Assembly (NCBI GenBank): GCA_963663765.2 | Contig: CAXXUA010000002.1 | Span: forward strand, 192,001-256,000 | Direction of reading: 5' to 3' | Origin: Candidatus Poribacteria bacterium | GTDB lineage: Bacteria; Poribacteria; WGA-4E; WGA-3G | DNA length: 64,000 nucleotides | Part shown: positions 15,901-63,362 of the stretch, piece by piece | Numbering within the stretch: position 1 is the stretch's first letter | How the letters are laid out: each line of letters opens with the position of its first letter | Program-made: the position numbers and the translations under genes | The notes under the pieces: generated by a model | Database searches by the model: none | Told to the model about the DNA's origin: nothing | The model's input: the letters and a program-made list of their open reading frames with translations, nothing else

Positions 15901-16022
15901 CCATAGACTGGTTTAAATACGAGAAAACAGAACAGTAACAATAAAAGTTTACGAAAGTTACACACTATATTTGAACAAACATGGGGGGATTTTGTGAAGT
16001 GATTGTAATCCAGATGATACAT
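12903..16022 (-). CDS. Omp85 family outer-membrane protein (BamA/TamA-like) with multiple POTRA domains
   Basis: Repeated POTRA-like units, barrel motif FWAGGSTTVRGY, ELRFPI, FFDTGNVW, C-terminal Phe; adjacent to tamB-like gene. Confidence 0.85.
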   Translation of the reverse strand: MYHLDYNHFTKSPHVCSNIVCNFRKLLLLLFCFLVFKPVYGENNVSMQSLDTSTDTIQQKKITKIEFYIDTNLVSDSEVLERLNEMIYIENGSQYSRYKIQQSVKSLYASQQFYQVYVYHIETPDGVSLKFDLTNVIRIQSITIIGVRSDELERNIDSSLRLKPGDMYVQIIAHNDIDSIKQVCAENGYFSAEVNINLVSSSGRLTYQIDLGEPTYVSEIRILGNKAIFTENIKEKCHTRVGGIYQKSVIDEDLRLIRDLYRKKYYHNTIIDYTFKSGVVTFSITEGTQLLLDFVDENGKPIFKESILRNIWKKLRNNRQESEKDQLMSDITSSISDQSQWIQIVESHFNIRGYEGTTVKLEKITNSPLHVKFTIKLGKRYLVKKVEFEGNDAFADHELLREMDSRPISFLSRHFNKRFFSEQTLETDKKRLRILYEKAGYPKLDVKQELGKQNTKSKNIGEVSIKLTFVEPYKEVIYRCHFIGNSVIDTASLTAALPDAPPVPNARLEQKRYENAIIKEYHDLGYIDIVIENPKFLDKLETPTFQLKGDFTTTLDSGMLPQELKKLFNKHELTLTGMYVATKIGDEWTIQDANGNARYTLNQDREHLSVYEHGILLFEISEGEQISFGSFSFVGDTGVIQKVLTREVAHLQGEIFKPEKLSQAIQNLYGTGIFEPGIRVEANESASIENQSSFTNSTNGSNLMLSEPNVRDVEIAIQKSKPRYFGAGGGFSSADGLRGTVTMNHLNLFRRNIRLGMRGRWGTRGYLYSTTLTEPWLIGRTSGSLQFLGRKLEEDDEVRALQGSFSLSRKLSTTHRLNLEYSYRSLKDISVESSDTTVSSLLFLWRQDSRLPALNPTSGMYNEYTVEYAGKFLGGESNFIKITADSRYYRQLFLRGLVFTPAFRIGYTPGLQDNPNSDTELISFERFWAGGSTTVRGYEERGLGPEDITGKHRGNVQFIFNTELRFPIFNPFHGVLFFDTGNVWGSLEDIEYKWLPSSVGVGLRLNIGPIIGGIEYAVPLVSVPDVLTNSVYFRIGNTF

Positions 16023-16024
16023 GA

Positions 16025-19000
16025 TTAAAACCGTCTATCCAACAGTTGAACATCAACACCGTACTCTCCGTTTACATCACGTTCCAATCTGATAGGAAAC
16101 CTTCTACCGAATAATGTAAATGGATATTCAGCGAATATATGACGTTCATCGTTGTTTAAACCTTTGGTGATTGTGAAGGTAAACCCACCTAACGAAAGTG
16201 ATAGGTTATTTCCTGGTAAAAGAAGAGCAAGAACGTCAGCATCTGTAAAGACTTCTGTTGTTGAAGAATTGATCGGTTCTGCCTGCAAACTGAGTTTTGC
16301 ATTATCAATATCTCCATTTTCAAGGATACCTGTGATTGATGCAGTAACCCTTAAATCTGCAGTGCTACCATCACTTAGTAATACACCAGGAATTGGGTTA
16401 GGTATTTTAAGAAAAATCTGTAGTTCTGGACTGAAGACCGTTGTACTATTGTTTCTAATTGTAGAATTCTCAACAATCTCAAATGTTGTTGTCAAGAAAG
16501 CAATTTTTCCACCAAGTAGCGAGACCGTACCGGTAAAAAGAGGTTCCTGGATAGGACCTGTGATTTGTCCACTGCAAGCGATTTCAATTTCTGTGTTTCC
16601 GGCAGTTGAAGAAAGTAAACGAAAGTTATTTGGTATATCAATTCCGATATTTAGATCAAGTCCACGTAGAATTGGTGCATAAGAAAGTATGTCAACTTCA
16701 CTAACTGTTCCCGATGAGAATGCACTTAGGATATCTTCCCAATCCCAATCTTGTTGGTAGTAGCCTGATTTAATATTTAAATTGCCTTCCAGAATGAGAT
16801 CGTCAACATTTCCATATAATTTTAACACATCTGAATCTAAATTGAATTGATATGCTCTGGGTTCGGCGAAAGTACAGTTGGTTAGTTCAGTTTCAAATCT
16901 GATATCGTTAATATTGAACCATTCTATGTTTATTTCTCCTTTAGTGGAAATGTTTCCATCATTCAACTGACCTTCAAAAGTAGTGAGTTCGATCTTGGAT
17001 TCAGTGAATTTAAACTGCGCGTTTGCATCTTCCAAAGAAATTGGCGAACCAACAATTTTAATCGCGACATCATCAAAAGTTCCTGTTCCGTTGAGTCGTG
17101 GTGTATCTGGTGTACCACTGATTGTTGCGTTGACAATTCCTTTACCATACGAAGTTTGAAAAAGAGGAGCAATAGGTTTTAAAATGCTGAGATCATTTAA
17201 CAGTAAGTCAAGTGTTACTGCTAACTCGTCATCTATTAACATCGCTTGAAGCTCAGTCAAGGACAATAAAAAGGGAACCTGACCAGAACAGGACAACTGA
17301 TTGCTACCAATTCTCATAATTGGTTTGTCTCCTGAGATATTCCACATCTTACCATTGATGTCATAATGAAGCTGAACTGAGAATTCATCAATAGACGCAT
17401 CATTGATTCCCAGTTCATTTCCAACAATATTTATTGACACCTCAGGTTTTTCATAAGTGCCAATTATATCTATGGAAGTAGTTAACCATCCAAGTTTGTT
17501 GTATGTTTCACGATATGCTGGTGGTAACCAAGGATTTATAGAAGATAAAGAGAAATTATCCAATTTCAAATTAGCAATCATTTCACCGTGCATATTCCAT
17601 CTGGCAAAACATGTGAATAATAAAGGTGCTTGTGTTTCATCATCAGGATTTGGAATGGTGTTTTTTAGTTTCAATGCTTTAATTTGAAAATTACCATTAA
17701 TCAGGGAAATCGGGATCAATTCTTGGTTTTGAAACAATAAATCGGTATCCATTGCGAAAAACCCAACCTTGATGTCCTCTATATTTAATTCTACTTCAGC
17801 CTTTTGAGTAAGTCGATCAAAGGTTATAACTTGAAGAGCCTTTGGAATTGGACTGTCCTCTCCATTCTCAAAAAAGGATTGAAGGGGTATACTTAGCTTT
17901 TTGAGTGAAGCGGTGACGCTACCTGTAACATCATTTAGAAAACCACTTGGAATTATATTTCTAAGCGTTGAACCCAATGGATAATTTCTCAATGAACATT
18001 CATAGATCTCAATGCTTTGCGGAGTTAATCCATCAAGAACCAATTTGTTTAGATCTTTTTGCTGTTCAAGTACCACTGTTCCATCTTCTATATCCAATTG
18101 TAACTTTGATACCTCAATAATGTCTTGTCGAGCGTTAAGCTGCACTTGGACGTTCCTTAGTGGATGTGGATATTCATGTAATACAAGTTTAGGTGCTTCA
18201 ACAGATATATTTCCTTCTAAATATAGTTTTGGTATTGTCCCTTTCAGTTGTAGGTTGATGTCGGTAACCCCATCCACTTCTGAAAAAACTTTATCAAGTC
18301 CAGGTAAGTATGTTATAGGTAGTTCAGTACCGATTAGTTGAAGTTTTATTGGTGATGTAGTAAAACGATCAATTAAATTAGTATTAATAAGTGATAAATC
18401 AAATGGAATCATACCTATTAGTTTTAAATTATCTCTACTTTTAGATAGTTCTATACTAACCATAATCTGTTTGTTGATATATTCAACATTCCCTTGCCAA
18501 AGTAAAGGTGAATCGCTGTCTTTCTGCAAAAGGGGTTTAATTGTGCCATTCCAGTGCATCGTGATATTTGGATTCATCAGTGTTTGATTAATACGAATAT
18601 CAACATTGGTTGAAGCTCTTGGTGATGAGATTTTCAATGGTAAATGTGAATTGAGTTCGCCTTTATCTAACCTGAACTCAAACGGCATTCTATTCTTAAT
18701 TTGATAGTTGTTTGCTTGTAAATTTATTTCATCAATTTTTGTAGATGTTATTACCTGATTCGGATCTAACTCTTTACCAGACAAAGTTGCAGTGCCACTG
18801 ACCGTCCCTTCTATTAATGGTGGTTTCTGATTGGAAAATGCAACAAAATCACCTATCTCCAATTCTTCAACAGATACTGCTAAATCTAACTCCATTATGT
18901 CATTGCCTTGTGTTGAAAACAGCATGTCACCAATTATATTAATACTGCCTGTTCCTATTTCACCATTTACAATCCAATCTTGTATATGCAACAGTTCTTC

Positions 19001-22000
19001 CTTGAAAGTCAAAACTAAATTCATCTGTTCCAACTCAATCGGTTTTGCAAAAGTACTAAATCGGATGGGATGATTTCTAACAGAATGGGTATTTAGTGTT
19101 AAGATCGGATTGGAAATGTTTCCGGTTAAATCTACTCCAACTACAAGGTTTCCTTCAACTATTTTGGTTTTTTTCATAGAAGGGTGGTTCAATTTCTCAG
19201 CAGGAATAAGGTTTCTAATAATATCTGAATACGCTGCTAAATCCAGATTGTCCCCCTTGATGTTTATGTCAAGATTTGATTCGTTAAAATTATTTTCATT
19301 TACGAATATATTCCCACCGATTTCTAATGGATTGTCTAATACACGTGCAGTGAATGGATTGATATGTATGGTGTTATTTTGATATGTTATTTCACCTCCG
19401 CTACTACTTATTTCAAAGTCTCCAGTGTAGGTCAATAGATTTAAGATTGGTAATTGCCAATTTAGGTTTATTGTTGGATTGCTGATATTACCCATTAAAT
19501 CCAGTTCGTAGTTTGCCTTACCAGTGATAGGGATTTTGAATGCTTCTCCTATCGCATCAAACACATAATCACCGTTGGAATTTGCATTGAAGTTCATAAC
19601 TTCACTCTTAGTATCAAGGGTACCAGTGAAATTTACAAATGCAGATTGATCTCCTTGCAAATTTAGTGAACATTCCGATACTGTCAAGATGTCATCTTCA
19701 AGTTTTATCAGAATGGGTGTCGCATTTGTAATAGGAAGTGAATTGTACTGAAACTGTGTTTTATTGATCTTGATATCAACGGTATATGGGTGAATACGTG
19801 TTCTGGATGGTTCTTCTGGTTGAGGAGCAGTTAAGTCCATTAGTGAACCCTTTATAGCAACAACACTATCTGCTGTACCTGAAACTTTCCCAAGTCTTTG
19901 ATCAAAAATCTTCAGAATCGGTGTAACATCTATTCCCTCAGTATTTAAAGTGAAGTGGTAATTACTCTCTTCAGTAGTATCTATTCTTCCTATTATGTTC
20001 GTTGACTCATTAAATCCTTTGCCAATAAACTTGAAGTAATCGTGTTCACCAATTAGCTGACTCTGTTTTACAAGAGTTGCATCCATATCTACGTCTCCAA
20101 GTAGGACGTTATCATAGATTAAATCAGAAAAGCCAAAATCAACTTTAATATCAAAATCTTCATGCTTTTTTTGTTGTGAACTAAGGTTGATATCCATTTT
20201 TCCATCAAGTGGAAACTCCGTAATACCCATTGCTAATGCCAGTTTTGCTAATTGAACCGGTTTATCAGTCCTGTTATTAATGTTTAATTCAAACTCTCCC
20301 TCATTTGTTACATGAGCATTCATATAGACCTGTTGACCGTTTGTCTTAATCTCAAAATTATTAATAGTTACTGAATAGTCATCAATTTCTAATGGTAGTG
20401 TAACAGTATCTAACTTAATTCCCCAAACTTTTCCACCATCAATTGTAAAGCTCCCTTTCCCATCAAGATTATTAATAAGGTTCCCAAATAGTTTTAACTC
20501 ACCACTCAACATACCTTCAATAGGAAAAGGTTGTTTGAATAATAGTTTGTTATAGTTTTCATCTAAGATAAGAGGATTCGCGACAATACTGATTCTGGTT
20601 GGAAGTTTCTCATCAAATTTGATTTCACCATCAATATCTATACTTGTATTTCTTGTCTGTCCATTATTTGTTAGGTGTGCATTTGCAATATATACCACTC
20701 TATCAGCAAATCGTAAATTTCCTGTTAGCTTTCCAATCGGTATTGGCTCACTTTCATTATGACTGTAAAATGCTTTGGATATTTCTGCATATCCCGTTGC
20801 AGTTCCATCTTTATAGACTTGTGCATCTATCATACCTAAACCAGAAAAGGGAACAGTGTTTGCAATTTTGCACAATTTACCGAAGTCAACATTCCCAAGT
20901 ATCACATTGAGTCTGTCAACAGAACCGCTTATGTCAACGATTGTATTATCTATTGTACCATCAACACGAACGTTTGAAGTGTTGGCATCTTCATAAGTAA
21001 TATTGCAGTCAAGCGATGAGTCTTCTAAAGGAATTGCTTTGTCTTGAACAAGTAACGTTGTACCAGACATTTGCATATTGCTTTCTAATTGAAAAACACT
21101 TGTTGTATTACCTGTAAATGATGCTGTTGCACTAAGTGTTCCAGTATGTATTCGCGGTGATTCTATTGTCAATTGGGGAAATGAAGATAAAAGAGAAGGT
21201 ATTTTGAAATCTGTAATTTCACAATTACCTTCATAGGTTTTTGGTTGTTTGACATAATGTTGTATCTGTTGGATGAGAGTACCTTCAGTTTTATTATCAA
21301 ATGAAATCTTACCATTTCCAGATAATTTTCCACCAGCTAACTCAGCACTGATATTGGTTATAGTAATTTGTGGTACATCAACTAAGTCTATATCTGAGTT
21401 AATGTTCAGTTTTGCGATGTTCAACTGCCCAGATTTTGGTTCTGAATTACCCTCACCAACAGTAGAGAAATGATTGACAGACAGTGCATCAGACTTCAAT
21501 GAAATATTTCCATTGAGTTGCGATTCTATGCCGGACAAAACCAATTCAGCATGACACAAACCTTTGAGTTGTATATCATACCCAAGTAGTTTTTGCACAT
21601 CAGATACATCTATTTCCGCGTCAACAACAGTATTCCAACTTCCCTTCACCAAATTACTCTTGAATTCCCCAACGTCTATAAGCGAGTTCCCAATTTGTAA
21701 CTTAAGTGATTCCGATATTTCAGCGCTTGCGGTTGATATAGCAAACTGCATATCCTTAATCTGTTCAATTGGCAATTCATATCCGTTAATGGTGAGATAA
21801 CCTTGACCTATAGAAAACTTTCCGGTATGCTCCCATTTATCTAACTGACCCGCTAAATTAACCTCAATTCTTGGTAGGTTCAGTTCTAATTTTTGTTCTA
21901 TATCAGTATAGTGAATTGCACCTCCATTTAGTTGAATTTTGGATATCGCAAACGCAAAGGAACTTTGAGATTTACTATCATCTTTATTTATGACTTGTGC

Positions 22001-22384
22001 TAAGTTTAGCACGCCATCCTCTGTTCGCACGACGTTTACTGTTGGAGAGTCAACTTGCAAAGCAGTAACAAGAAACTTGCGTCTCAACAGACCTAGTATA
22101 TTATACTTGAGAATGATCTTCTGAGTGAATAGAATAGGTGGTTTTTCTGAGTCACTTTTTTTAAGTGTAAAGTTTCTCGCTTCAACACCTGTTAGGATGT
22201 TTCCACTTAATTTATCAAGCGAAACTTCATAATCGTTAGAAATCTGTTGTTGAATTGCAGAAATCAATCTGGGCTTAATAAAGTTTTCTAAAAAATAGTC
22301 CGAGCTTATAAAAAGAAATCCTACGATACTACACAGAAGTATTAGCAAAGGAAGATAAATTAAAAGCACTTTTCGTCGTTTCAT
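16025..22384 (-). CDS. TamB/AsmA-like translocation and assembly module protein
   Basis: 2119 aa, N-terminal membrane anchor, AsmA-like N-terminus, repeated beta-taco motifs (GTPDTPRLNG, GPIQEPLFTG), upstream of an Omp85 gene. Confidence 0.78.
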   Translation of the reverse strand: MKRRKVLLIYLPLLILLCSIVGFLFISSDYFLENFIKPRLISAIQQQISNDYEVSLDKLSGNILTGVEARNFTLKKSDSEKPPILFTQKIILKYNILGLLRRKFLVTALQVDSPTVNVVRTEDGVLNLAQVINKDDSKSQSSFAFAISKIQLNGGAIHYTDIEQKLELNLPRIEVNLAGQLDKWEHTGKFSIGQGYLTINGYELPIEQIKDMQFAISTASAEISESLKLQIGNSLIDVGEFKSNLVKGSWNTVVDAEIDVSDVQKLLGYDIQLKGLCHAELVLSGIESQLNGNISLKSDALSVNHFSTVGEGNSEPKSGQLNIAKLNINSDIDLVDVPQITITNISAELAGGKLSGNGKISFDNKTEGTLIQQIQHYVKQPKTYEGNCEITDFKIPSLLSSFPQLTIESPRIHTGTLSATASFTGNTTSVFQLESNMQMSGTTLLVQDKAIPLEDSSLDCNITYEDANTSNVRVDGTIDNTIVDISGSVDRLNVILGNVDFGKLCKIANTVPFSGLGMIDAQVYKDGTATGYAEISKAFYSHNESEPIPIGKLTGNLRFADRVVYIANAHLTNNGQTRNTSIDIDGEIKFDEKLPTRISIVANPLILDENYNKLLFKQPFPIEGMLSGELKLFGNLINNLDGKGSFTIDGGKVWGIKLDTVTLPLEIDDYSVTINNFEIKTNGQQVYMNAHVTNEGEFELNINNRTDKPVQLAKLALAMGITEFPLDGKMDINLSSQQKKHEDFDIKVDFGFSDLIYDNVLLGDVDMDATLVKQSQLIGEHDYFKFIGKGFNESTNIIGRIDTTEESNYHFTLNTEGIDVTPILKIFDQRLGKVSGTADSVVAIKGSLMDLTAPQPEEPSRTRIHPYTVDIKINKTQFQYNSLPITNATPILIKLEDDILTVSECSLNLQGDQSAFVNFTGTLDTKSEVMNFNANSNGDYVFDAIGEAFKIPITGKANYELDLMGNISNPTINLNWQLPILNLLTYTGDFEISSSGGEITYQNNTIHINPFTARVLDNPLEIGGNIFVNENNFNESNLDINIKGDNLDLAAYSDIIRNLIPAEKLNHPSMKKTKIVEGNLVVGVDLTGNISNPILTLNTHSVRNHPIRFSTFAKPIELEQMNLVLTFKEELLHIQDWIVNGEIGTGSINIIGDMLFSTQGNDIMELDLAVSVEELEIGDFVAFSNQKPPLIEGTVSGTATLSGKELDPNQVITSTKIDEINLQANNYQIKNRMPFEFRLDKGELNSHLPLKISSPRASTNVDIRINQTLMNPNITMHWNGTIKPLLQKDSDSPLLWQGNVEYINKQIMVSIELSKSRDNLKLIGMIPFDLSLINTNLIDRFTTSPIKLQLIGTELPITYLPGLDKVFSEVDGVTDINLQLKGTIPKLYLEGNISVEAPKLVLHEYPHPLRNVQVQLNARQDIIEVSKLQLDIEDGTVVLEQQKDLNKLVLDGLTPQSIEIYECSLRNYPLGSTLRNIIPSGFLNDVTGSVTASLKKLSIPLQSFFENGEDSPIPKALQVITFDRLTQKAEVELNIEDIKVGFFAMDTDLLFQNQELIPISLINGNFQIKALKLKNTIPNPDDETQAPLLFTCFARWNMHGEMIANLKLDNFSLSSINPWLPPAYRETYNKLGWLTTSIDIIGTYEKPEVSINIVGNELGINDASIDEFSVQLHYDINGKMWNISGDKPIMRIGSNQLSCSGQVPFLLSLTELQAMLIDDELAVTLDLLLNDLSILKPIAPLFQTSYGKGIVNATISGTPDTPRLNGTGTFDDVAIKIVGSPISLEDANAQFKFTESKIELTTFEGQLNDGNISTKGEINIEWFNINDIRFETELTNCTFAEPRAYQFNLDSDVLKLYGNVDDLILEGNLNIKSGYYQQDWDWEDILSAFSSGTVSEVDILSYAPILRGLDLNIGIDIPNNFRLLSSTAGNTEIEIACSGQITGPIQEPLFTGTVSLLGGKIAFLTTTFEIVENSTIRNNSTTVFSPELQIFLKIPNPIPGVLLSDGSTADLRVTASITGILENGDIDNAKLSLQAEPINSSTTEVFTDADVLALLLPGNNLSLSLGGFTFTITKGLNNDERHIFAEYPFTLFGRRFPIRLERDVNGEYGVDVQLLDRRF

Positions 22385-28500: not shown

Positions 28501-29547
28501 TTAATACACCTCTATATGTGCAGTTCCAGATGAAATGACTTCTCCAATTACAGCAGCTTCAGGACAGTCGGCAGCATGAAGTTCGTCTAATGCTGCATCA
28601 GCATTTTCGGCTGGGAGTGCAAATAGGAGACCCCCTGAAGTTTCTGCTTCCATCAAAATATGTTGCATTTCATCCTTAACAGATTGATTGAATGTAATCT
28701 TGTCAGCAAGAAATTTTGAGTTTGCTATGTATGCTTGTGTATAGATTTTCTTTGCCACAAGCGCAGGTGCGTCTTCAAAATAAGGGACAGCATTGCTGTT
28801 TATTCTTAGTGTGACATCATTACCTTCTGCCATTTCTGTAGCATGTCCTAACAACCCATATCCAGTAACATCTGTACAAGCAGTAGCTTCATTTTTTACC
28901 ATCACTTCTGCGGCGGAAGCGTTTAGACGTGTCATAGATTCAACCAATTGTGGAAGTACTTCATCACTGATTTTATTGAATTTCAATCCGGTGGTGAGAA
29001 TGCCGATCCCCAGATTTTTTGTTAAGATCAGAATATCACCAGGACACGCCCCATAATTCCTAACAAATTTTTCCGGATGTACAACACCTGTAACAGCTAA
29101 TCCATACATCAGTTCAGGAGCGTCTACTGTGTGACCACCAAGAAGTGCAGCACCAGATTCTGCTGCTTTATCCGCTCCACCTTTGACAATGTCACCCAGA
29201 ATTGATAAATCAAGGTTATCTTTAGGCCAACATGCAATGTTCAAAGCAGTTTTTGGTACTCCACCCATACTATATACATCACTTAGTGAGTTTGTTGCTG
29301 CAATTGCACCAAATGTATAAGGATCGTCAACAATAGGAGTGAAGTAGTCTACTGTGTTGACAAGAGCAAGCTCATCAGATAATCGATATATACCCGCATC
29401 ATCAGATGTTTCTGTTCCAACAAGCAGATTTGGATCGGTAGATTTTGGAAGGTTTTCCAAAACTTGCGAAAGCTCACCCGGAGCAAGTTTTGATGCTCAG
29501 CCAGCACATTTGACTGTCTTGGTAAGTCTTATCTTTTTTTTTGTCAT
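28501..29547 (-). CDS. selD: Selenide, water dikinase SelD, selenocysteine-containing (Sec17)
   Basis: Extending the listed ORF upstream through TGA (tca at + 29497-29499) gives MTKKKIRLTKTVKCAG-U-ASKLAPGELSQVLENLP; body has DDAGIY, TVDYFTPIVDDP, GGHT, DVTGYGLLGH, ETSGGLL. Confidence 0.95.
29458..29492 (-). promoter_or_regulatory. Putative bacterial SECIS hairpin of selD
   Basis: mRNA just after UGA: caaaacuu-gcuc-cgggu-gagc-uuucgc-aaguuuug, a stem-loop with a G-rich apical loop. Confidence 0.65.
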
Positions 29548-52290: not shown

Positions 52291-52417
52291 ATTTTTACCA
52301 AAAAACTTCAATATTTATTGGCAATTGTGTTATACTTGCATGCTATACTTTAATTTATATGCATCTAAAAAGACAGATGTATAAAAACATTATTTGTTCA
52401 CACTCTCGGAGGAATGC

Positions 52418-53218
52418 ATGGAACAGCATATAACAGATGAACAGTGGGAACATTTCTCGGAATACGGCTATGTTCATATCGGTCAGGTAGCAACAGATGA
52501 CGAATTATCAGAGTTACAACAACACATGGACGACATCATGCTTGGAAAAGCCCCCATAGATTATAACAAAATCATGATGCAACTGGATAGAGCGCCGGGA
52601 ACAAACGCACCCGGACCACAATCTGCTGGACATAAAGGGGTTACTTTACTTTATAGAAAAATTCAGAATCTTGAATTGGATCCATACTTCTTAAAATATC
52701 TTCAAAATACTACTTTCAAAGAAGTCTGTGCAAACATCTATGGAAAAGATGTGCCTATTCTCTGTTTCCGCGCAATGTTTATGAACAAACCCGCAGGAGA
52801 AGGTACATATCTCGTCTGGCATCAAGATAGATGGACAGACCTTGACCGAGATCCTCAGATTACAATCTATACAGCATTAGATCCCGCAACGATTGAAAAT
52901 GGATGTGTACATATTATCCCCGGCTCACATAGCGAACTCATTAATCCATCTCACGGTTCTGGTTTTCTTAATCAAGAACAGATAGATGACATCGTTGCGA
53001 ATTCAACGCCACTGCCGCTGGAATTAAAAGCAGGCGAGGTAGTCCTACTACACAATTGGATGCTACACAGTTCGGGGACAAACCAAACGGAAATTCCGCG
53101 TAGAGCTTTCAGCGTGTGCTATATGCATGGAGATACAAAATCCCATCGCGGTTCAACCTTTAGACGCGTATTCGGTGAGGGTGCTTTGACAGTTGAAGAT
53201 TTAGCGAAAACTGCATAG
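52418..53218 (+). CDS. Phytanoyl-CoA dioxygenase (PhyH) family 2OG-Fe(II) oxygenase
   Basis: WHQD, ALDPATIENGC, IPGSH, LHSSGTN...RRA; ggagga RBS before ATG 52418. Confidence 0.9.
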   Translation: MEQHITDEQWEHFSEYGYVHIGQVATDDELSELQQHMDDIMLGKAPIDYNKIMMQLDRAPGTNAPGPQSAGHKGVTLLYRKIQNLELDPYFLKYLQNTTFKEVCANIYGKDVPILCFRAMFMNKPAGEGTYLVWHQDRWTDLDRDPQITIYTALDPATIENGCVHIIPGSHSELINPSHGSGFLNQEQIDDIVANSTPLPLELKAGEVVLLHNWMLHSSGTNQTEIPRRAFSVCYMHGDTKSHRGSTFRRVFGEGALTVEDLAKTA

Positions 53219-55674: not shown

Positions 55675-58600
55675 ATGGCAGAAGCGTCAATTGAAATATA
55701 CGGCGCAAGAGAACATAATCTAAATAATATTGACGTGAGACTCCCCAAAGATAAACTCATTGTCTTCACAGGGGTAAGTGGTTCTGGTAAATCATCACTT
55801 GCAATTGATACACTCTATGCAGAAGGTCAAAGAAGATACATTGAATCACTTTCTGCGTACGCGAGACAGTTCTTAGGACAACTCGGTAAAGCTGAAGTAG
55901 ATAGAATTGTTGGGTTGTCACCTTCCATAGCAATTGATCAAGGTTCAACGGGTCATAATCCGCGTTCAACGGTTGCAACCGTAACCGAAATCTACGATTA
56001 TTTTCGTGTGCTTTTTGCGCGCGCAGGTGAATTCCACTGTCTTGAATGTGGTCAGAAGGTGGGATCGCAAACAATCGCGGATATCGTTTCAAACATCATG
56101 AACCTACCCCAACGTACCCGCATTATGATCTTAGCACCTATCGTCAAAGGCAGACGGGGCGAGTACAGAAAAGAGTTATCAGACGCTCGAAAAATGGGAT
56201 TTATTCGCGCCCGTATTGATGGGGAAATCCACGAAATCAACGCCAACATTGCACTTAATCCAAATCAAAGACACACCATAGACTTGGTAATTGATAGAAT
56301 CATTATTAAGGACGATGTTGAGAGCCGTGTTGCTGAAGCCGTTGAAACGGCTCTCAACATAGGAGACGATATACTCATTGTCAATGTCGTTTCCTCAGAT
56401 AATCCTTCTTCCCGAAAGCAATCAAAAGGTGAAGACTTGCTGTTTAGTCGGCAGTATTCTTGCACGAACTGTCAAGTAAGTTATAATATCCCTGAACCCC
56501 GTCATTTTTCTTACAACAGTCCTTACGGTATGTGTGAGCAGTGCCGAGGATTAGGAGTACAAATGGCAATCTCTCCGAAGTTGATTGTTGTTGATGATAA
56601 CTTACCAGTCATGAAAGGTGCTTTACTATTATGGGAAAAACCCGATTTAAACGAGAAGATGATTTTGCAAACGTTAGCAACACACCTCGGATTCAAACAA
56701 AATACGCCATGGAAGGAACTTACACACGAACAACAACATGCAATATTGTATGGTACGGGTGATACATTACTCACTTTTCGTCAACCAACTGTGAGTAATA
56801 GACGTAAGGGAAAACGTGTACGTGGAAGATTTCAAGGACTGATACCAGCACATGAACATCGATACTTATGGTTAGACGTTAATGAAGAGGGGCATGGAAA
56901 CCCTCATTTACCCGATTACTTTGTCAAGTTGCCGTGTAGAGATTGTGACGGAACCCGTTTGAACAATGTAGTAAAAGCAATTACTATAGCAGGTAAAAAC
57001 ATCACGGAAGTCCTTGATATGTCTATACAGGACTCAGCATCTTTCTTCAATACACTTGAACTACCTGAAAAACAAGCTTTCATAGCTACAGAACTCTTGA
57101 AAGAAATTCGTTCACGTCTCGGTTTCCTACTGGATGTGGGATTAGGTTATCTCACACTGTCCCGTTCCGCACCAACCTTGTCTGGTGGAGAAGCACAAAG
57201 AATACGTCTTGCAAGCCAAGTTGGTGCAGGACTACGGGATGTTACTTATGTCCTTGACGAACCAAGCATCGGTTTGCACCCTCGCGACCACGCAGGACTA
57301 CTAAAGACTTTAATGAACCTACGCAATCAAGGAAATACCGTTATCGTCGTTGAACATGACGAAGCAACTATGTTGGTAGCCGATTGGATAGTAGATTTCG
57401 GTCCCGGTGCAGGAATAAGAGGCGGGGAAATTACCGGTATGGGAACACCTGAGCAAATTATAAATGATAACGACTCACTAACAGCACAATATCTAAGGGG
57501 TGATAAAAAAATTATCCATCCTGAATCACGAAGACCAACAGGCGAAAGATGGGTACAAATCTGCAAAGCACGACAGAATAACCTAAAAGATATTAGTCCT
57601 AAAATTCCACTCGGAACGCTATGTTGTGTAACAGGGGTTAGCGGTTCTGGGAAAAGTTCTCTTATTCATGACATCCTTTACTGTGCACTCGCAAGAGACC
57701 TGATGAGAGCAAAAACTGTACCCGGAGATTACGGTACAATACAAGGTGTTGTTGATGACAAAGACGTTCCTGTCCCTGAAGTCGTGGACAAAATCATCAA
57801 CATTAATATGGCACCTATCGGACGCACACCACGTTCAAATCCTGCTACATATACAAAGGTATTTGATGCTATCCGAGCTTTCTATACAAACCTACCAGAT
57901 TCCAAACTTCGCGGATATAAACCCGGTCGGTTTAGTTTCAATGTACCCGGTGGACGATGTGAAGCATGCACTGGTAATGGTGCTAAAAAAATTGACATGG
58001 GGATACTCGCAGATGTATGGGTGGAGTGTGATGTCTGCAGTGGAAAAAGATATAACAATGAAACACTTAATATCAAATTTAAAGGGAAAAGTATTTCTGA
58101 TGTCTTACAAATGGACATTGCAACCGCTCTTGAGCATTTCGCAGACATACCCAAAATTGCAAGAGGCTTACAACTGCTTCACGATGTGGGTTTAGATTAC
58201 ATAAAACTTGGACAACCGGCACCAACCCTTTCTGGTGGGGAAGCACAACGAATTAAACTCTCAAAGGAACTTTCAAAAAGAAGTACCGGTAAAACTCTTT
58301 ATATCCTTGATGAACCTACAACAGGTTTGCACTTTGAAGATGTCAATAAGTTGTTGTCTATTCTGCACAGATTAGTTGATGAAGGCAACACAGTCGTCGT
58401 GGTTGAACACAACCTTGAAGTAATCAATTCTGCAGATTATCTGATCGATTTAGGACCAGAAGGCGGTATGGAAGGCGGAGAAATTGTAGTTGTCGGCACT
58501 CCTGAAGAAGTTATGAATATACCTGAGTCTTATACAGGACAAGCATTGCGTGGAGAATTCGATCTCTGGAAAAACATTGATAAAAAATCCACCATTGCTG

Positions 58601-61395
58601 AAAATGGCGGCATACCCAAAAACATCCTTGAGGAAACTATTTTCAATGACACTAAGACTATTTCGGTTCAAGGAGCAGAAGAAAATAATCTAAAAAATAT
58701 TGACATAGACATACCCCACCAAAGGTTAACCGCATTGACTGGTGTTAGTGGATCAGGTAAGACCTCACTCGCACTTGATACAATATATGCGGAAGGACAA
58801 CGCAGGTATATTGAGACACTCAGCACTTATGCACGTCAATTTATCGGAAGCATGGAGAAACCGAAAGTTTCAAAAATAGAAGGACTTTCACCAGCAATAG
58901 CAATCACACACTCAAGTCCAAGCCAAAACCCGCGTTCCACTGTCGCTACAATAACAGAAATACATGACGGTCTCCGTACACTATATGCCCGATGGGGACA
59001 ACCACACTGTCCAGATTGCAATGTTGAAGTCCGACCACAAACAGCGCAACAGATAGTTGAATACGTCTTTAGTCTCATGAAGAATAAACGGGTTGATGTG
59101 ATGGCACCGCTTACAAACTTCAAATCTTTTGAAGGTAATGCTGAGGTATTAATAGGCGCAGAACGTACTCCCGGACTAAAAGGTAACGAAGATTATGCAG
59201 ACGCTTTTCGTAGGTTACAAAGAATAGGTTTCGCAAGGGTACAAATTGATGGAGAGATCTTTAGACTTGATGAAACGCCAGAAATCCATAAACGTCGCAG
59301 GCACGAAGTTTTTCTCGTAATTGACCGCATTCAACTCAACGTTGATGAAAAAAGTAGACTCACAGAAGCAGTAGAATTAGCTCTGATTGAAAGTGAAGGA
59401 TTTGTTATTTTAGAGGAAAAAATAGATAAAGAAATACCTAATAGAGTTTTCTTCAGTGAACACGCAATGTGTTCAAACTGTGGACGCAACTTCCCACAAC
59501 TTACACCCAGACATTTCTCCTTTAACAATAAATTAGGAGCATGCAGTTCCTGTGATGGTATTGGAAGATCCTCTATAGATCAACAAAACACTTGTCAAAG
59601 ATGTAATGGAACACGATTAGATGAATTTCCACGCAACGTCCAATTCTCTGACAAAACAATCGCAGAACTTATGGCAATTTCAATATCTAAGACAATAGAA
59701 TTCTTTGGCACACGAATAAATACAATTGAGAAGCATCTCACGACAGCCGCTGGTTCAAAGGAAGCAAAAGCAGCAATGGAACAAGTCCGAGACGTATCTA
59801 CATCAAGAGCAACACATCCAAAACTTCACTCCCATACTTCACCCGAATTTGAAGCACAACTGTTACGTCAATTACAAATCCGCCTAAAATTCTTAGAAAA
59901 TATCGGACTCGGATACCTCGGTTTAGACCGACCCGCACCAACACTTTCTGGGGGAGAAATTAGAAGAATTCGACTCGCAAGTCAACTCGGAACTGGTCTA
60001 ACTGGTGTAACATACATACTTGACGAACCCAGTATCGGATTACACCCACGCGACCAAGAACAACTGATCCTCGCAATGAAGGATTTGCGCGATATAGGAA
60101 ATAGTGTACTCGTCGTTGAACACGATAAGGATACAATTCTATCAGCAGACCATATCATTGATTTCGGACCAAAAGCAGGAAAACAGGGTGGTGAAATAAT
60201 CGCTACCGGTACACCTGAAACCTTCACTGAATCACAACCTATTCCAATTCCTAATTCTAAAAAAACAAACAGCAACTCTGATAAGACAAAGACAAAAGCA
60301 TCTGAAAAGGGATTAACACAAGCTTATCTTTCCAATGAATTGCAAATTCCTGTACCTGCAGTCCGGCGAAAAGGTTCTGGAAAATGGTTGAAACTTTTCG
60401 GAGCAAAAACAAACAATCTAAAAGACATTGATATAGAAATCCCTTACGGAACGTTTACTTGTGTAACTGGTGTTTCAGGATGTGGAAAAAGTTCACTGAT
60501 TGAAGGTACACTCCGACCCGCACTGGAAGACAAACGCTCAATTAGAAAAGGAAACCAAAGTTCAACCAATACTTTTGGGACTCCATTGTATGATAAAATC
60601 CAAGGAATAACGCCAATTGAACGAATGATACACATAGACCAAAAACCTATAGGTGAAACACCACGGTCTAACCCAGCAACTTACACCGAACTATTTACCA
60701 AAATCCGTGAAATGTTTGCTGAATTACCTGATGCAAAACGTCGTGGATTTAACAGAGGAAGGTTTAGTTTCAATCTATCTTATGGGCAGTGTGAAGAGTG
60801 TGACGGACACCGTTACAATCGCATAGAGATGCATTTCTTACCAGATGTATGGATACCGTGCGAAAACTGCAACAGCACAGGATACAACGCTGAAACGCTT
60901 GAAGTAAGGTACAAAGGTAAGAATATCGCAGAAGTTCTACAAATGACGGTACAAGAAGCTCTTGACCTATTTAGTAATATTGCAAGAATAAAACGACCAC
61001 TTCAAACATTAGCAGATGTCGGTTTAGACTATATTCAATTAGGACAAGCAGCCACTACACTCTCCGGTGGAGAAGCACAACGCGTCAAACTCGCAAAAGA
61101 ATTAGCACGTCGTCAAACAGGTACCACGCTCTATATCATGGATGAACCAACAACGGGTTTGCATTTTGATGACGTTCAAAAGCTGCTCAACGTACTCAAC
61201 AAACTTGTTGATGCAGGCAACACGATTGTTGCTATAGAACACAATCTGGATGTTATCAAATCTGCTGATTGGCTAATAGATTTGGGACCAGAAGGAAGTG
61301 ACGCCGGTGGTTATATTGTTGCAATGGGTACTCCTGAAGAAGTTGCAGAGAACAAAGAATCACACACCGCACGTTTCCTCAGTAAGATATTATAG
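55675..61395 (+). CDS. uvrA: Excinuclease ABC subunit A, double-length (tandem UvrA-UvrA)
   Basis: Four Walker A motifs (GVSGSGKSS twice, GVSGSGKTS, GVSGCGKSS), four LSGGE signatures, two EGQRRYIE motifs, zinc fingers; 1906 aa. Confidence 0.93.
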   Translation: MAEASIEIYGAREHNLNNIDVRLPKDKLIVFTGVSGSGKSSLAIDTLYAEGQRRYIESLSAYARQFLGQLGKAEVDRIVGLSPSIAIDQGSTGHNPRSTVATVTEIYDYFRVLFARAGEFHCLECGQKVGSQTIADIVSNIMNLPQRTRIMILAPIVKGRRGEYRKELSDARKMGFIRARIDGEIHEINANIALNPNQRHTIDLVIDRIIIKDDVESRVAEAVETALNIGDDILIVNVVSSDNPSSRKQSKGEDLLFSRQYSCTNCQVSYNIPEPRHFSYNSPYGMCEQCRGLGVQMAISPKLIVVDDNLPVMKGALLLWEKPDLNEKMILQTLATHLGFKQNTPWKELTHEQQHAILYGTGDTLLTFRQPTVSNRRKGKRVRGRFQGLIPAHEHRYLWLDVNEEGHGNPHLPDYFVKLPCRDCDGTRLNNVVKAITIAGKNITEVLDMSIQDSASFFNTLELPEKQAFIATELLKEIRSRLGFLLDVGLGYLTLSRSAPTLSGGEAQRIRLASQVGAGLRDVTYVLDEPSIGLHPRDHAGLLKTLMNLRNQGNTVIVVEHDEATMLVADWIVDFGPGAGIRGGEITGMGTPEQIINDNDSLTAQYLRGDKKIIHPESRRPTGERWVQICKARQNNLKDISPKIPLGTLCCVTGVSGSGKSSLIHDILYCALARDLMRAKTVPGDYGTIQGVVDDKDVPVPEVVDKIININMAPIGRTPRSNPATYTKVFDAIRAFYTNLPDSKLRGYKPGRFSFNVPGGRCEACTGNGAKKIDMGILADVWVECDVCSGKRYNNETLNIKFKGKSISDVLQMDIATALEHFADIPKIARGLQLLHDVGLDYIKLGQPAPTLSGGEAQRIKLSKELSKRSTGKTLYILDEPTTGLHFEDVNKLLSILHRLVDEGNTVVVVEHNLEVINSADYLIDLGPEGGMEGGEIVVVGTPEEVMNIPESYTGQALRGEFDLWKNIDKKSTIAENGGIPKNILEETIFNDTKTISVQGAEENNLKNIDIDIPHQRLTALTGVSGSGKTSLALDTIYAEGQRRYIETLSTYARQFIGSMEKPKVSKIEGLSPAIAITHSSPSQNPRSTVATITEIHDGLRTLYARWGQPHCPDCNVEVRPQTAQQIVEYVFSLMKNKRVDVMAPLTNFKSFEGNAEVLIGAERTPGLKGNEDYADAFRRLQRIGFARVQIDGEIFRLDETPEIHKRRRHEVFLVIDRIQLNVDEKSRLTEAVELALIESEGFVILEEKIDKEIPNRVFFSEHAMCSNCGRNFPQLTPRHFSFNNKLGACSSCDGIGRSSIDQQNTCQRCNGTRLDEFPRNVQFSDKTIAELMAISISKTIEFFGTRINTIEKHLTTAAGSKEAKAAMEQVRDVSTSRATHPKLHSHTSPEFEAQLLRQLQIRLKFLENIGLGYLGLDRPAPTLSGGEIRRIRLASQLGTGLTGVTYILDEPSIGLHPRDQEQLILAMKDLRDIGNSVLVVEHDKDTILSADHIIDFGPKAGKQGGEIIATGTPETFTESQPIPIPNSKKTNSNSDKTKTKASEKGLTQAYLSNELQIPVPAVRRKGSGKWLKLFGAKTNNLKDIDIEIPYGTFTCVTGVSGCGKSSLIEGTLRPALEDKRSIRKGNQSSTNTFGTPLYDKIQGITPIERMIHIDQKPIGETPRSNPATYTELFTKIREMFAELPDAKRRGFNRGRFSFNLSYGQCEECDGHRYNRIEMHFLPDVWIPCENCNSTGYNAETLEVRYKGKNIAEVLQMTVQEALDLFSNIARIKRPLQTLADVGLDYIQLGQAATTLSGGEAQRVKLAKELARRQTGTTLYIMDEPTTGLHFDDVQKLLNVLNKLVDAGNTIVAIEHNLDVIKSADWLIDLGPEGSDAGGYIVAMGTPEEVAENKESHTARFLSKIL

Positions 61396-61883: not shown

Positions 61884-61922
61884 TCTTACACTTACAAGGA
61901 TAATTAGAAAACAAAGCTGAAT

Positions 61923-62141
61923 ATGATACATATTAACGAAGAACTTTGCGTTTATTGTGGGGCATGCGTTGCAGTCTGTCCCGAAAATATTATTGACTTG
62001 ATAGACACACATCTGAAAATTGACCAACCCAAGTGCATTGACTGTATGAAATGCGTCAAAGGCTGCCCGATTGGTGTTCTTTCTATGGAACGGAACGGAA
62101 AGATTTATTCTTTCGATTATCCCGAGAGAGGACTTTTCTGA
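61923..62141 (+). CDS. 2x[4Fe-4S] dicluster ferredoxin
   Basis: CVYCGACVAVCP and CIDCMKCVKGCP. Confidence 0.92.
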   Translation: MIHINEELCVYCGACVAVCPENIIDLIDTHLKIDQPKCIDCMKCVKGCPIGVLSMERNGKIYSFDYPERGLF

Positions 62142-62168
62142 TAAAGAGTGCTGTAGAGAGAAGTATAG

Positions 62169-63362
62169 ATGCTACATTCAGAGTATGATGTCATTGCTGT
62201 TGGGGCGGGACCAGGTGGTTCTATCGCAGCAAAAGTTGCCGCTGAAAATGGTTTGCGGGTTCTCCTTTTAGAGAAACGGCAAGAAATAGGCGTACCACTC
62301 CGCTGAGCTGAAGGTATTGGCACAGAGGATCTGTGCGAATTTATTCAGCCAGACGCGGCATGGATATCAAATGAGATCCACGGGGCACGTATTTTCTCCC
62401 CTAACGAGACTGCAGTCACAATTCATCAACCAGGCGCAGGTTACGTCTTAGAACGAAAGGTGTTTGATCTCCGTCTTGCGGAGATGGCATCAAACTCGGG
62501 TGCCGAGGTTATGGTAAAGGCACGTGTTACAAATGTCACTTTCTCTGAAGCTGGTGCTGTGAACGGTGTCGTATTCCGACATTCAGGACGCGAATATACG
62601 TGCAAAAGCAAGATAGTTATCGCTGCGGATGGGGTTGAATCGCAAGTTGGACGGTGGGCAGGTATTGATACTACCCACCAACTACGTGATATTGGTGCTT
62701 GTGCCCAGTATCTCATTTCAAACATTGATATTATGCCTGAGTACTGTGATTTTTACTTCGGGCGCGAGGTTGCTCCACTTGGTTATGTTTGGGTTTTTCC
62801 AAAAGGGAAAGACATCGCAAACGTTGGGGTCGGCGTTAGGGCAAATATTTCAGGAAAAGACAGCAAACTTGCTATAGACTACCTAAACGCATTTGTCAAA
62901 CGGAAGTTCCCGGAGGGTAAAGTTTTAGGATTAGTGTGCGGTGCGGTTCCTGTCGGACAAGGTTTGCCGCGGATTGTCGGGGATGGCATTCTGCTTGTTG
63001 GCGACGCAGCACATCACAGCGATCCAGTCTCTGGAGGAGGTATCCCTAACGCAATGTATTCTGGGAAATTTGCAGCGGAAGCAGCGGTCAAGGCTATACA
63101 CATCGGTGATGTCTCACGAGATATTCTCAGCGCATATTCAAAACGTTGGGACCGCGAAATCGGTAAACACTTTAAGCATATCTGTCGCATCCGCGATGGA
63201 GTTTTAAAATTCAATGACGATACACTTGATAGATATGCAGAACTACTTTCTCAGATACATGGTGAACCGTTAACGTTGGCAAAGATCTTCCAAACAGTAC
63301 TTAAAAATCAACCAAGTTTGCTTCTTGAACTCCGACACCTCATTTTAGCTGGATGGGTTTAG
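62169..63362 (+). CDS. Geranylgeranyl reductase family (archaeal DGGR-like) FAD oxidoreductase with in-frame TGA at codon 46, predicted selenocysteine
   Basis: ATG 62169 gives [16 protein letters not shown]...[20 protein letters not shown] in frame with the listed ORF; later [29 protein letters not shown]; 397 aa in total. Confidence 0.88.
62316..62340 (+). promoter_or_regulatory. Putative SECIS hairpin downstream of the GGR UGA
   Basis: att-g-gcacaga-gga-tctgtgc-g-aat; the perfect 7-bp stem starts 13 nt after TGA (62304-62306), G-first loop. Confidence 0.65.

Follow-up and report, generated by a model that had tools for sequence, protein, structure and literature searches.

The closest described counterparts of the gene considered here are the archaeal geranylgeranyl reductases (GGRs), among them the digeranylgeranylglycerophospholipid (DGGGPL) reductase of Thermoplasma acidophilum (Ta0516; PDB 3oz2) and the GGR of Sulfolobus acidocaldarius (PDB 3atq and the 4op* entries). 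As described in two publications, a conserved cysteine of GGRs sits behind the isoalloxazine ring of flavin adenine dinucleotide (FAD); catalysis by the S. acidocaldarius enzyme requires it, and its role is unsettled (PMC6309074, PMC10821996). The gene lies in a 64,000-nucleotide stretch of a Candidatus Poribacteria genome (contig CAXXUA010000002.1, positions 192,001 to 256,000; hereafter the window). It shares with the archaeal enzymes their fold and domain order (template-modeling (TM) score of 0.88 over 397 residues against 3oz2), the GxGxxG, PxxYxWxFP, GGG and LVGDAA motifs, and the active-site column. How does it differ? Its host is a bacterium, its identity to the archaeal GGRs is only 38%, its scores fall under their equivalog cut-offs, and at the cysteine it has a UGA codon, read here as selenocysteine (Sec), with a hairpin resembling a selenocysteine insertion sequence (SECIS). 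We put the probability that the gene encodes a Sec-containing geranylgeranyl (prenyl) reductase at about 90% on comparative evidence. That evidence is strong, and UGA and cysteine very probably constitute a genuine and conserved Sec/Cys pair belonging to a known enzyme family.

The direct sister groups are Cys-containing GGRs of other Poribacteria, which are 48-64% identical to the gene and have the same motifs and the same neighbours, UbiA and geranylgeranylglyceryl phosphate (GGGP) synthase (GGGPS). They differ in having TGY at the site and, in fused forms, a ferredoxin within the same polypeptide. Replacement of a flavin-interacting redox Cys by Sec is also known from two bacterial flavoenzymes, according to a May 2026 review (PMC13188914): the CoA-disulfide-reductase-like FAD oxidoreductase (TIGR03385) and a selenoprotein subtype of type III sulfide:quinone reductase (NF049943), both predicted by the same comparative criteria as those applied here. 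They belong to other flavoprotein families and perform thiol or sulfide chemistry, whereas GGR reduces unactivated C=C bonds. These two are the only flavoenzymes named as such in Table 1 of that review, and the 119 prokaryotic selenoprotein families of the table include no entry for GGR, TIGR02032, PF22578 or PF01494. The main texts of deep-Sep (PMC12013277), BSepDB (PMC13326102), a 2022 review and a 2026 paper on Sec users contain the word "geranylgeranyl" 0 times, though a supplementary-table entry is possible; the 2026 paper names Poribacteria among Sec users. Full-text searches in a collection of about 8.4 million papers, combining selenoprotein or selenocysteine with geranylgeranyl (reductase), returned unrelated papers only, and the best 25 of 80 NCBIfam release 20 families for this protein include no selenoprotein-specific GGR model. 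A preliminary description of the locus, made from the DNA letters, knew of no GGR among described selenoproteins, which agrees with the 119-family list and the main texts of the catalogues.

A further comparison is offered by Candidatus Cloacimonetes of the FCB group, for which PMC7852524 describes GGGP synthase, digeranylgeranylglyceryl phosphate (DGGGP) synthase and a GGR that is close to those of Euryarchaeota, together with the lack of CarS and of a clear glycerol-1-phosphate (G1P) dehydrogenase, gaps also seen in the genome of the window. Unlike that lineage, which belongs to a different phylum, one order of Poribacteria has a predicted Sec codon in the GGR gene, and Poribacteria have a UbiA - ferredoxin - GGR - GGGPS cluster beside outer-membrane biogenesis genes. 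Poribacteria are mentioned 0 times in the main text of PMC7852524, which reports no selenocysteine, and literature searches found no description of this cluster in Poribacteria.

An in-frame UGA at the active-site cysteine column

The full gene comprises 397 codons, counting position 46, and a TAG stop. An in-frame TAG directly precedes the ATG, and the frame is then open to its terminal TAG except for a single TGA (Table 1). The preliminary description had observed that mechanical calling of open reading frames (ORFs) starts this gene too late to include the FAD-binding motif, that the same frame is open from the upstream ATG apart from one TGA, and that it contains a PxGYxWxFP motif; all three observations were reproduced, the GTG call lacking the N-terminus. 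In a profile search, the read-through protein scored 237.9 bits against TIGR02032 (cut-off 158.8) and 90.8 against PF22578 GGR_cat (cut-off 27, E 5e-26). Its best solved relative is 3oz2, matched over the full length with an E of 2e-81, and position 46 pairs with chain Cys45 in that alignment. The earlier claim that the stop falls exactly on the conserved flavin-adjacent cysteine is borne out by this pairing. Sec is the selenium analogue of Cys, and the active-site column (Cys47 in S. acidocaldarius GGR, Cys45 in T. acidophilum GGR) is occupied here by the UGA, a putative Sec codon, and not by a Cys codon. Across the 17 Cys homologs of alignment A2, C46 is invariant; so is LVGDAA, an LxGD motif present in the read-through product. 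PMC10821996 and PMC6309074 name the PxxYxWxFP motif for GGRs and are also the source of the definitions used for the GxGxxG, GGG and LxGD motifs.

An AlphaFold2 model built with 18 sequences has a mean predicted local distance difference test (pLDDT) score of 86.4 and a predicted TM-score (pTM) of 0.87. The best PDB match of the model is 3oz2, and the Sulfolobus GGR structures 3atq and 4op* superpose with TM 0.79-0.82. The product is very likely a prenyl reductase. It misses the equivalog cut-offs for DGGGPL reductases (NF041160, 300.6 vs 780; NF041080, 180 vs 580; NF041385, 95.7 vs 700), so the gene is not filed as a DGGGPL-reductase equivalog, though its product may still work like one.

Is the TGA a property of one assembly or of a lineage? 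A homolog at E <= 1e-60 was detected in 55 of 176 species genomes of the phylum. Of these matches, 42 belong to the order of the window (families f1-f4), all Sec-type or uninformative. Exactly one TGA was found in 39 of them, accompanied in G134 by a TAG, and the matches of the order that span codon 46 have the TGA in 39/39 cases. In G016 and G028 a frameshift divides the gene and leaves the TGA on the N-terminal part; the G068 match, at the end of a contig, covers the C-terminus only. Internal stops are absent from the 13 matches outside the order, and all five of these that were examined as DNA have Cys at the site (PVR-C-AEG). At the level of loci, the TGA stands at the same column in 37/37 orthologs examined from the order, which span four families with 66-82% protein identity, and 34 of the 37 are otherwise intact. 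The rest of the window's gene, judged intact in the preliminary description, is open apart from the TGA. Relatives were also drawn from one genome per prokaryotic species (198 returned, residue comparison on the best 80). Among these 80, the codon-46 column holds U in 12, all from Candidatus Poribacteria, and C in 68, from Thermoplasmatota, Methanosarcinales, Ignavibacteriales, Bacteroidota, Anaerolineae and others; it holds Cys in 19/19 full-length metagenomic homologs. No TAA or TAG was found at the site among the relatives compared. The TGA/Cys alternation that the preliminary description suggested looking for has this form: predicted Sec in the loci examined from the order, Cys in the more distant homologs compared. 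Conservation of the TGA is, on these comparisons, far beyond chance.

Database proteins for the closest homologs, NCBI entries included, are N-terminally truncated to 292-346 aa. Gene callers treat the locus as truncated, as they would if it were a nonsense pseudogene or an assembly error yielding a truncated product or none. The further lesions in three of the 37 orthologs and the absence of the gene from most genomes of the window's family also fit such an origin. We find it hardly credible, given that the TGA recurs in all 37 loci of four divergent families and that 34 of them carry no other lesion. In pairwise comparisons of the 34 intact genes, the ratio of nonsynonymous to synonymous substitution rates (dN/dS) amounts to 0.052 over codons 1-45, to 0.063 from codon 47 onwards, and to 0.105 over codons 47-97, which lie between the TGA and the mis-called GTG start (pairs kept if dS was 0.05-3, giving 249, 117 and 330 of 561 pairs for codons 1-45, 47-end and 47-97). 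Purifying selection, for which the preliminary description had proposed a check, is seen both upstream and downstream of the TGA. An assembly error is further contradicted by contig X6, a strain variant from a different study, which spans 61900-62393 and differs at five places, the TGA not among them; the codon is not confined to this assembly. Conservation, dN/dS and this independent contig were the grounds for rejecting a pseudogene or an assembly error. The truncated database calls instead indicate that annotation pipelines missed the Sec codon. Since all ortholog calls compared are truncated and lack the FAD-binding motif, the gene appears to be systematically mis-annotated in Poribacteria genomes.

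The history of the codon was examined in a quick IQ-TREE maximum-likelihood tree with 64 rows, in which the 34 Sec forms make up one clade (SH-like approximate likelihood-ratio test, SH-aLRT, 99) nested among Cys forms. Its sister consists of two Cys forms, P0028 and P0036, that are 62-64% identical to P0001. Several of the surrounding Cys forms are named as or placed in Poribacteria, and the archaeal sequences lie outside in this quick tree. A single change from Cys to predicted Sec, at the base of one Candidatus Poribacteria order, is sufficient to explain this pattern. Genomes with the Sec form have no Cys paralog; their other matches are at most ~31% identical.

A conserved hairpin and the selenocysteine machinery

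The bacterial SECIS consensus is a stem-loop that lies within the coding sequence, closely follows the UGA and carries a G in its apical loop. The preliminary description had noted a hairpin following the TGA. The 86-nt segment 62295-62380 has a folding energy of -33.7 kcal/mol (z = -4.26); 0/200 shuffles were as stable. Over the 37 loci, a conserved 7-bp stem was predicted unaided by RNAalifold. It starts 13 nt after the TGA, a spacing that we take to be bacterial-SECIS-like by comparison with that of E. coli fdhF. This core is kept in 37/37 loci, the first G (G30) of its 3-nt loop is invariant, and three stem pairs change on both sides yet stay paired (C-G/U-A, A-U/G-C and C-G/A-U/U-A). Helix 2 is 93.1% paired, and its double-change cells number 24 vs 8.6 +/- 2.7 in shuffles, 0/500 of which were as high in a test that ignores relatedness. 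Controls with slid partners gave 27-53% pairing vs 84.7% for the structure. The hairpin noted in one sequence is in fact a conserved and covarying element.

A comparison with Cys genes gives a similar picture, as far as a rough control that ignores relatedness and GC content allows: within 45 nt after the codon, 37/37 and 12/12 Sec genes have a stem of 6 bp or more vs 27/68 Cys genes, and the mean minimum free energy after the codon is -14.3 and -13.2 kcal/mol in the two Sec sets vs -7.6 kcal/mol in the Cys genes.

The peptide that follows position 46 (GTxxLCE, 62316-62340) is encoded by the arms of the hairpin and reads GAPALHE in two loci (L024 and L025). Because the compensatory changes alter the protein in this way, the RNA structure is favoured by selection at a cost to the peptide. 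Among Cys forms, the same segment is variable. Cys56, ten residues after position 46, was considered as a resolving cysteine and set aside, its codon lying in the 3' arm of the hairpin and encoding His in L024 and L025. Its presence is probably a side effect of the RNA structure, and a role as resolving cysteine is less likely.

Does the organism possess the means to insert Sec? Profile searches of the window's genome (labelled G000; 97.8% complete) detected selA (620.8 bits) and selB (361.6 bits), and a tRNA-Sec(tca) lies 54 nt downstream of selB. All three genes that the preliminary description proposed to check for are present. The selenophosphate synthetase gene selD, which that description had placed in the window as a Sec-type gene, has an in-frame TGA as stated (Table 1), and the N-terminus of its product reads MTKKKIRLTKTVKCAG-U-ASK (...KCAG-U-ASK). 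The mechanical ORF call for selD (28501-29460) cuts off this N-terminus. Across the phylum, selB was found in 167/176 genomes. The only two Sec-GGR genomes without a selB match are 80-81% complete. In genus g20, both genomes (92% and 95% complete) lack a selB match, and their GGR is the Cys form.

Could the UGA specify a standard amino acid such as Trp, Cys or Gly instead of Sec, through an altered code or near-cognate decoding? The inserted residue is not readable from sequence alone, and the hairpin might promote generic read-through. An altered code is ruled out, however: TGA is a common stop that terminates 457/2438 long open frames of the genome, the adjoining ferredoxin gene and 4/37 of the GGR orthologs themselves, and it is not reassigned. 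Also against decoding as a standard amino acid are the position of the site, exactly at the Cys column, the hallmark of Sec/Cys pairs, the 13-nt spacing and invariant loop G of the hairpin, and the complete Sec machinery. We regard this possibility as highly improbable.

Several observations weigh against a Sec-containing reductase. Three of the 37 orthologs are disrupted, by frameshifts in L026 (from G016) and L027 (G028) and by a TGG-to-TAG change in L043 (G134). GGR is found in 15/111 other genomes of the window's family, vs 10/11 and 7/7 in two sister families. On this distribution, the gene is one that was lost repeatedly after the Cys-to-Sec change and would be dispensable in part of the lineage. 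The disruptions, together with the absence of the gene from most genomes of the family, suggest ongoing loss or assembly errors. The RNA-library contigs X8 and X9 bridge the TGA over 62176-62364 and to that extent speak for it, but they resemble a single data set, could stem from contaminating DNA and are no proof of transcription; gaps in their cover of the gene carry no meaning. Confidence of the AlphaFold2 model is low (pLDDT < 50) at residues 38-45, just before position 46, and at 286-289. The lower or outer helix of the hairpin is 70.8% paired without covariation, and its outer pairs are specific to this genome. An extended lower stem was ruled out as part of the SECIS, being unconserved across loci, and our claim is limited to the 7-bp core. 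The hairpin matches no Rfam family, although Rfam may hold no model covering such structures; two sub-threshold matches on the opposite strand, manA and STnc30, were discarded as chance. To these points may be added the limits of the shuffle and Cys-gene controls given above.

The proposal of a Sec-containing prenyl reductase, as first put forward in the preliminary description, is nevertheless supported by the Sec/Cys alternation, the covarying hairpin, the Sec machinery, dN/dS and the family models, all of which are comparative in nature.

Ferredoxin, gene neighbourhood and substrate

Table 1. Positions of the features discussed, numbered from the first letter of the window
Feature	Position	Strand	Basis or remark
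Selenophosphate synthetase SelD, itself a predicted selenoprotein	28501..29547	-	Sec codon 29497-29499; TIGR00476 367.6 bits, one TGA inside the match
2x[4Fe-4S] ferredoxin, 72 aa, TGA stop 27 nt before the GGR start	61923..62141	+	Pfam Fer4 families; likely electron donor
GGR-family gene	62169..63362	+	TIGR02032, PF22578 GGR_cat, PDB 3oz2 match, AlphaFold2 model
FAD-binding GAGPGG (GxGxxG), codons 12-17, 5' of the TGA	62202..62219	+	G12, A13, G14, P15 and G17 invariant in alignment A2
In-frame TGA, codon 46, read as Sec; U46 corresponds to Cys45 of T. acidophilum GGR and to Cys47 of the S. acidocaldarius enzyme	62304..62306	+	Alignments
SECIS-like stem-loop	62307..62349	+	Core stem 62320-62326/62330-62336; loop 62327-62329 (GGA, first G invariant); outer pairs 62307-62312/62344-62349
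GTG used as start in mechanical ORF calling; mis-call, 300-aa protein	62460..62462	+	Codons 47-97 dN/dS 0.105
PLGYVWVFP, the PxxYxWxFP catalytic-domain motif of GGRs	62775..62801	+	P203, G205, Y206, W208, F210 and P211 invariant in A2
GGG motif, G289-G291 (within SGGG)	63033..63041	+	Invariant in A2; motif named in PMC6309074

A small ferredoxin gene precedes GGR (Table 1). By tblastn, a ferredoxin is encoded directly upstream of GGR in 34/37 Sec loci, and in relatives of ~470 aa it is fused to the GGR N-terminus. The GGR of Methanosarcina acetivorans reportedly requires ferredoxin, with the partner ferredoxin encoded alongside. Three closely related Sec-GGR loci (L012, L013 and L050) have no ferredoxin within the 1.5-kb upstream flank.

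What is the substrate? Neighbourhoods were compared in 16 contexts, the window and 15 others. The common order is BamA - OmpH - LpxD - (deacetylase) - UbiA - UbiA - [ferredoxin] - GGR - PcrB - HrcA - GrpE - DnaJ, which places archaeal-type lipid genes beside those for outer-membrane biogenesis. The proximal UbiA is adjacent in 11/16 contexts and PcrB in 9/16, distant Cys and fused forms included. The PcrB neighbour passes the GGGP-synthase equivalog TIGR01769 (222.3 vs 161.55). Because the ferredoxin-GGR pair stands between a DGGGP-synthase-like UbiA and GGGP synthase in most relatives, we lean towards an archaeal-type prenyl-glyceryl-phosphate ether lipid as the substrate. This assignment draws on the neighbourhood and is also favoured by the co-occurrence of genes: GGGPS is found in 53/55 GGR-bearing genomes, the two exceptions being 64% and 73% complete, and in genus g6 the sole GGR-bearing genome of 20 is also the sole GGGPS-bearing one. 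The closest solved relative, moreover, is the Thermoplasma DGGGPL reductase.

A real Sec-GGR acting instead on the menaquinone side chain, a polyprenol or free geranylgeranyl diphosphate (GGPP) is a serious contender. GGR-family paralogs act on many prenyl substrates, according to PMC10821996, and the NF041160 score of 300.6 is far under the cut-off of 780. In the window's genome, where the order is Era - 1906-aa UvrA-like protein - ferredoxin - GGR - DnaJ, the cluster is broken up, and the gene is beside neither GGGPS nor UbiA, which are kept on another contig (GGGPS at C4:104574-105305; C4:255733-256596 is also listed for the dispersed cluster). The best NCBIfam models for the adjacent UbiA of relatives are DGGGP synthases, with scores under their cut-offs (218 vs 269; 200 vs 296). 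GGGPS occurs in 144/176 genomes vs GGR in 55/176, so that many genomes have GGGPS without GGR. No match to CarS (PF01864) was found in G000. The G1P dehydrogenase model PF13685 gave four weak matches there, which are uninformative, as the same model matches 13/14 control genomes. These points stand against an ether lipid, and the conserved UbiA - ferredoxin - GGR - GGGPS order, kept even in distant forms, stands for it.

Other features of the neighbourhoods are as follows. The Poribacteria cluster was seen in L062-L067, L072, L075 and L076 and is dispersed in the window's genus. In some relatives a SpoU methylase (c14) stands between UbiA and ferredoxin; we took it for an unrelated insertion. 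The gene directly upstream of the ferredoxin, at 55675-61395 (+), encodes a 1906-aa protein in which UvrA-like modules are duplicated (two UvrA interaction domains, one UvrA DNA-binding domain and an ABC ATPase); its position is kept in L068 and L069. A PhyH (phytanoyl-CoA dioxygenase family) gene is located a few kb from GGR in 4/16 contexts: the window (52394-53218, +), L062 (2348-3136), L068 and L076. Elsewhere in the window, at 12903-22384 (-), there are two very long adjacent ORFs of 1039 and 2119 aa.

Implications for prenyl reductases and for Poribacteria

How might this system operate? GGR is probably co-transcribed with the upstream ferredoxin gene, judging from the anatomy of the locus. 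At UGA46, the conserved hairpin 13 nt downstream would recruit SelB with Sec-tRNA(Sec), and insertion of Sec would yield the full flavoenzyme of 397 residues. From the family and the literature, Sec46 would take the place that the conserved Cys of other GGRs occupies behind the FAD isoalloxazine ring. Ferredoxin would pass electrons to FAD, and the reduced flavin would saturate polyprenyl C=C bonds. The SECIS-like hairpin arose inside the sequence-variable segment just after the active-site residue. Why exchange Cys for Sec? We speculate that Sec could react more readily with the flavin as a redox or nucleophilic partner, or could better withstand over-oxidation.

According to the 2026 review (PMC13188914), the majority of predicted bacterial selenoproteins look like thiol oxidoreductases or contain redox motifs. 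A flavoenzyme that hydrogenates unactivated isoprenoid C=C bonds would be a candidate selenoprotein family of an unusual type. The natural swap of Cys for Sec argues that the GGR cysteine does chemistry, and variants with Sec, Cys or Ser would offer an experimental route into its unsettled role. For its part, the conserved lipid-gene cluster of Poribacteria bears on the question of whether bacteria make archaeal-type ether lipids. A fuller proposal is that the flavin-proximal cysteine of GGRs is a true redox or nucleophilic catalytic residue, upgraded to Sec in one Poribacteria order, and that these sponge-associated bacteria make saturated archaeal-type isoprenoid ether lipids by a ferredoxin-driven, selenium-dependent step. 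This combination is tentative, and we consider it on the unlikely side. If true, it would mean that the saturation of membrane lipids depends on a trace element, and it would constitute a further breach of the divide between bacterial and archaeal lipids.

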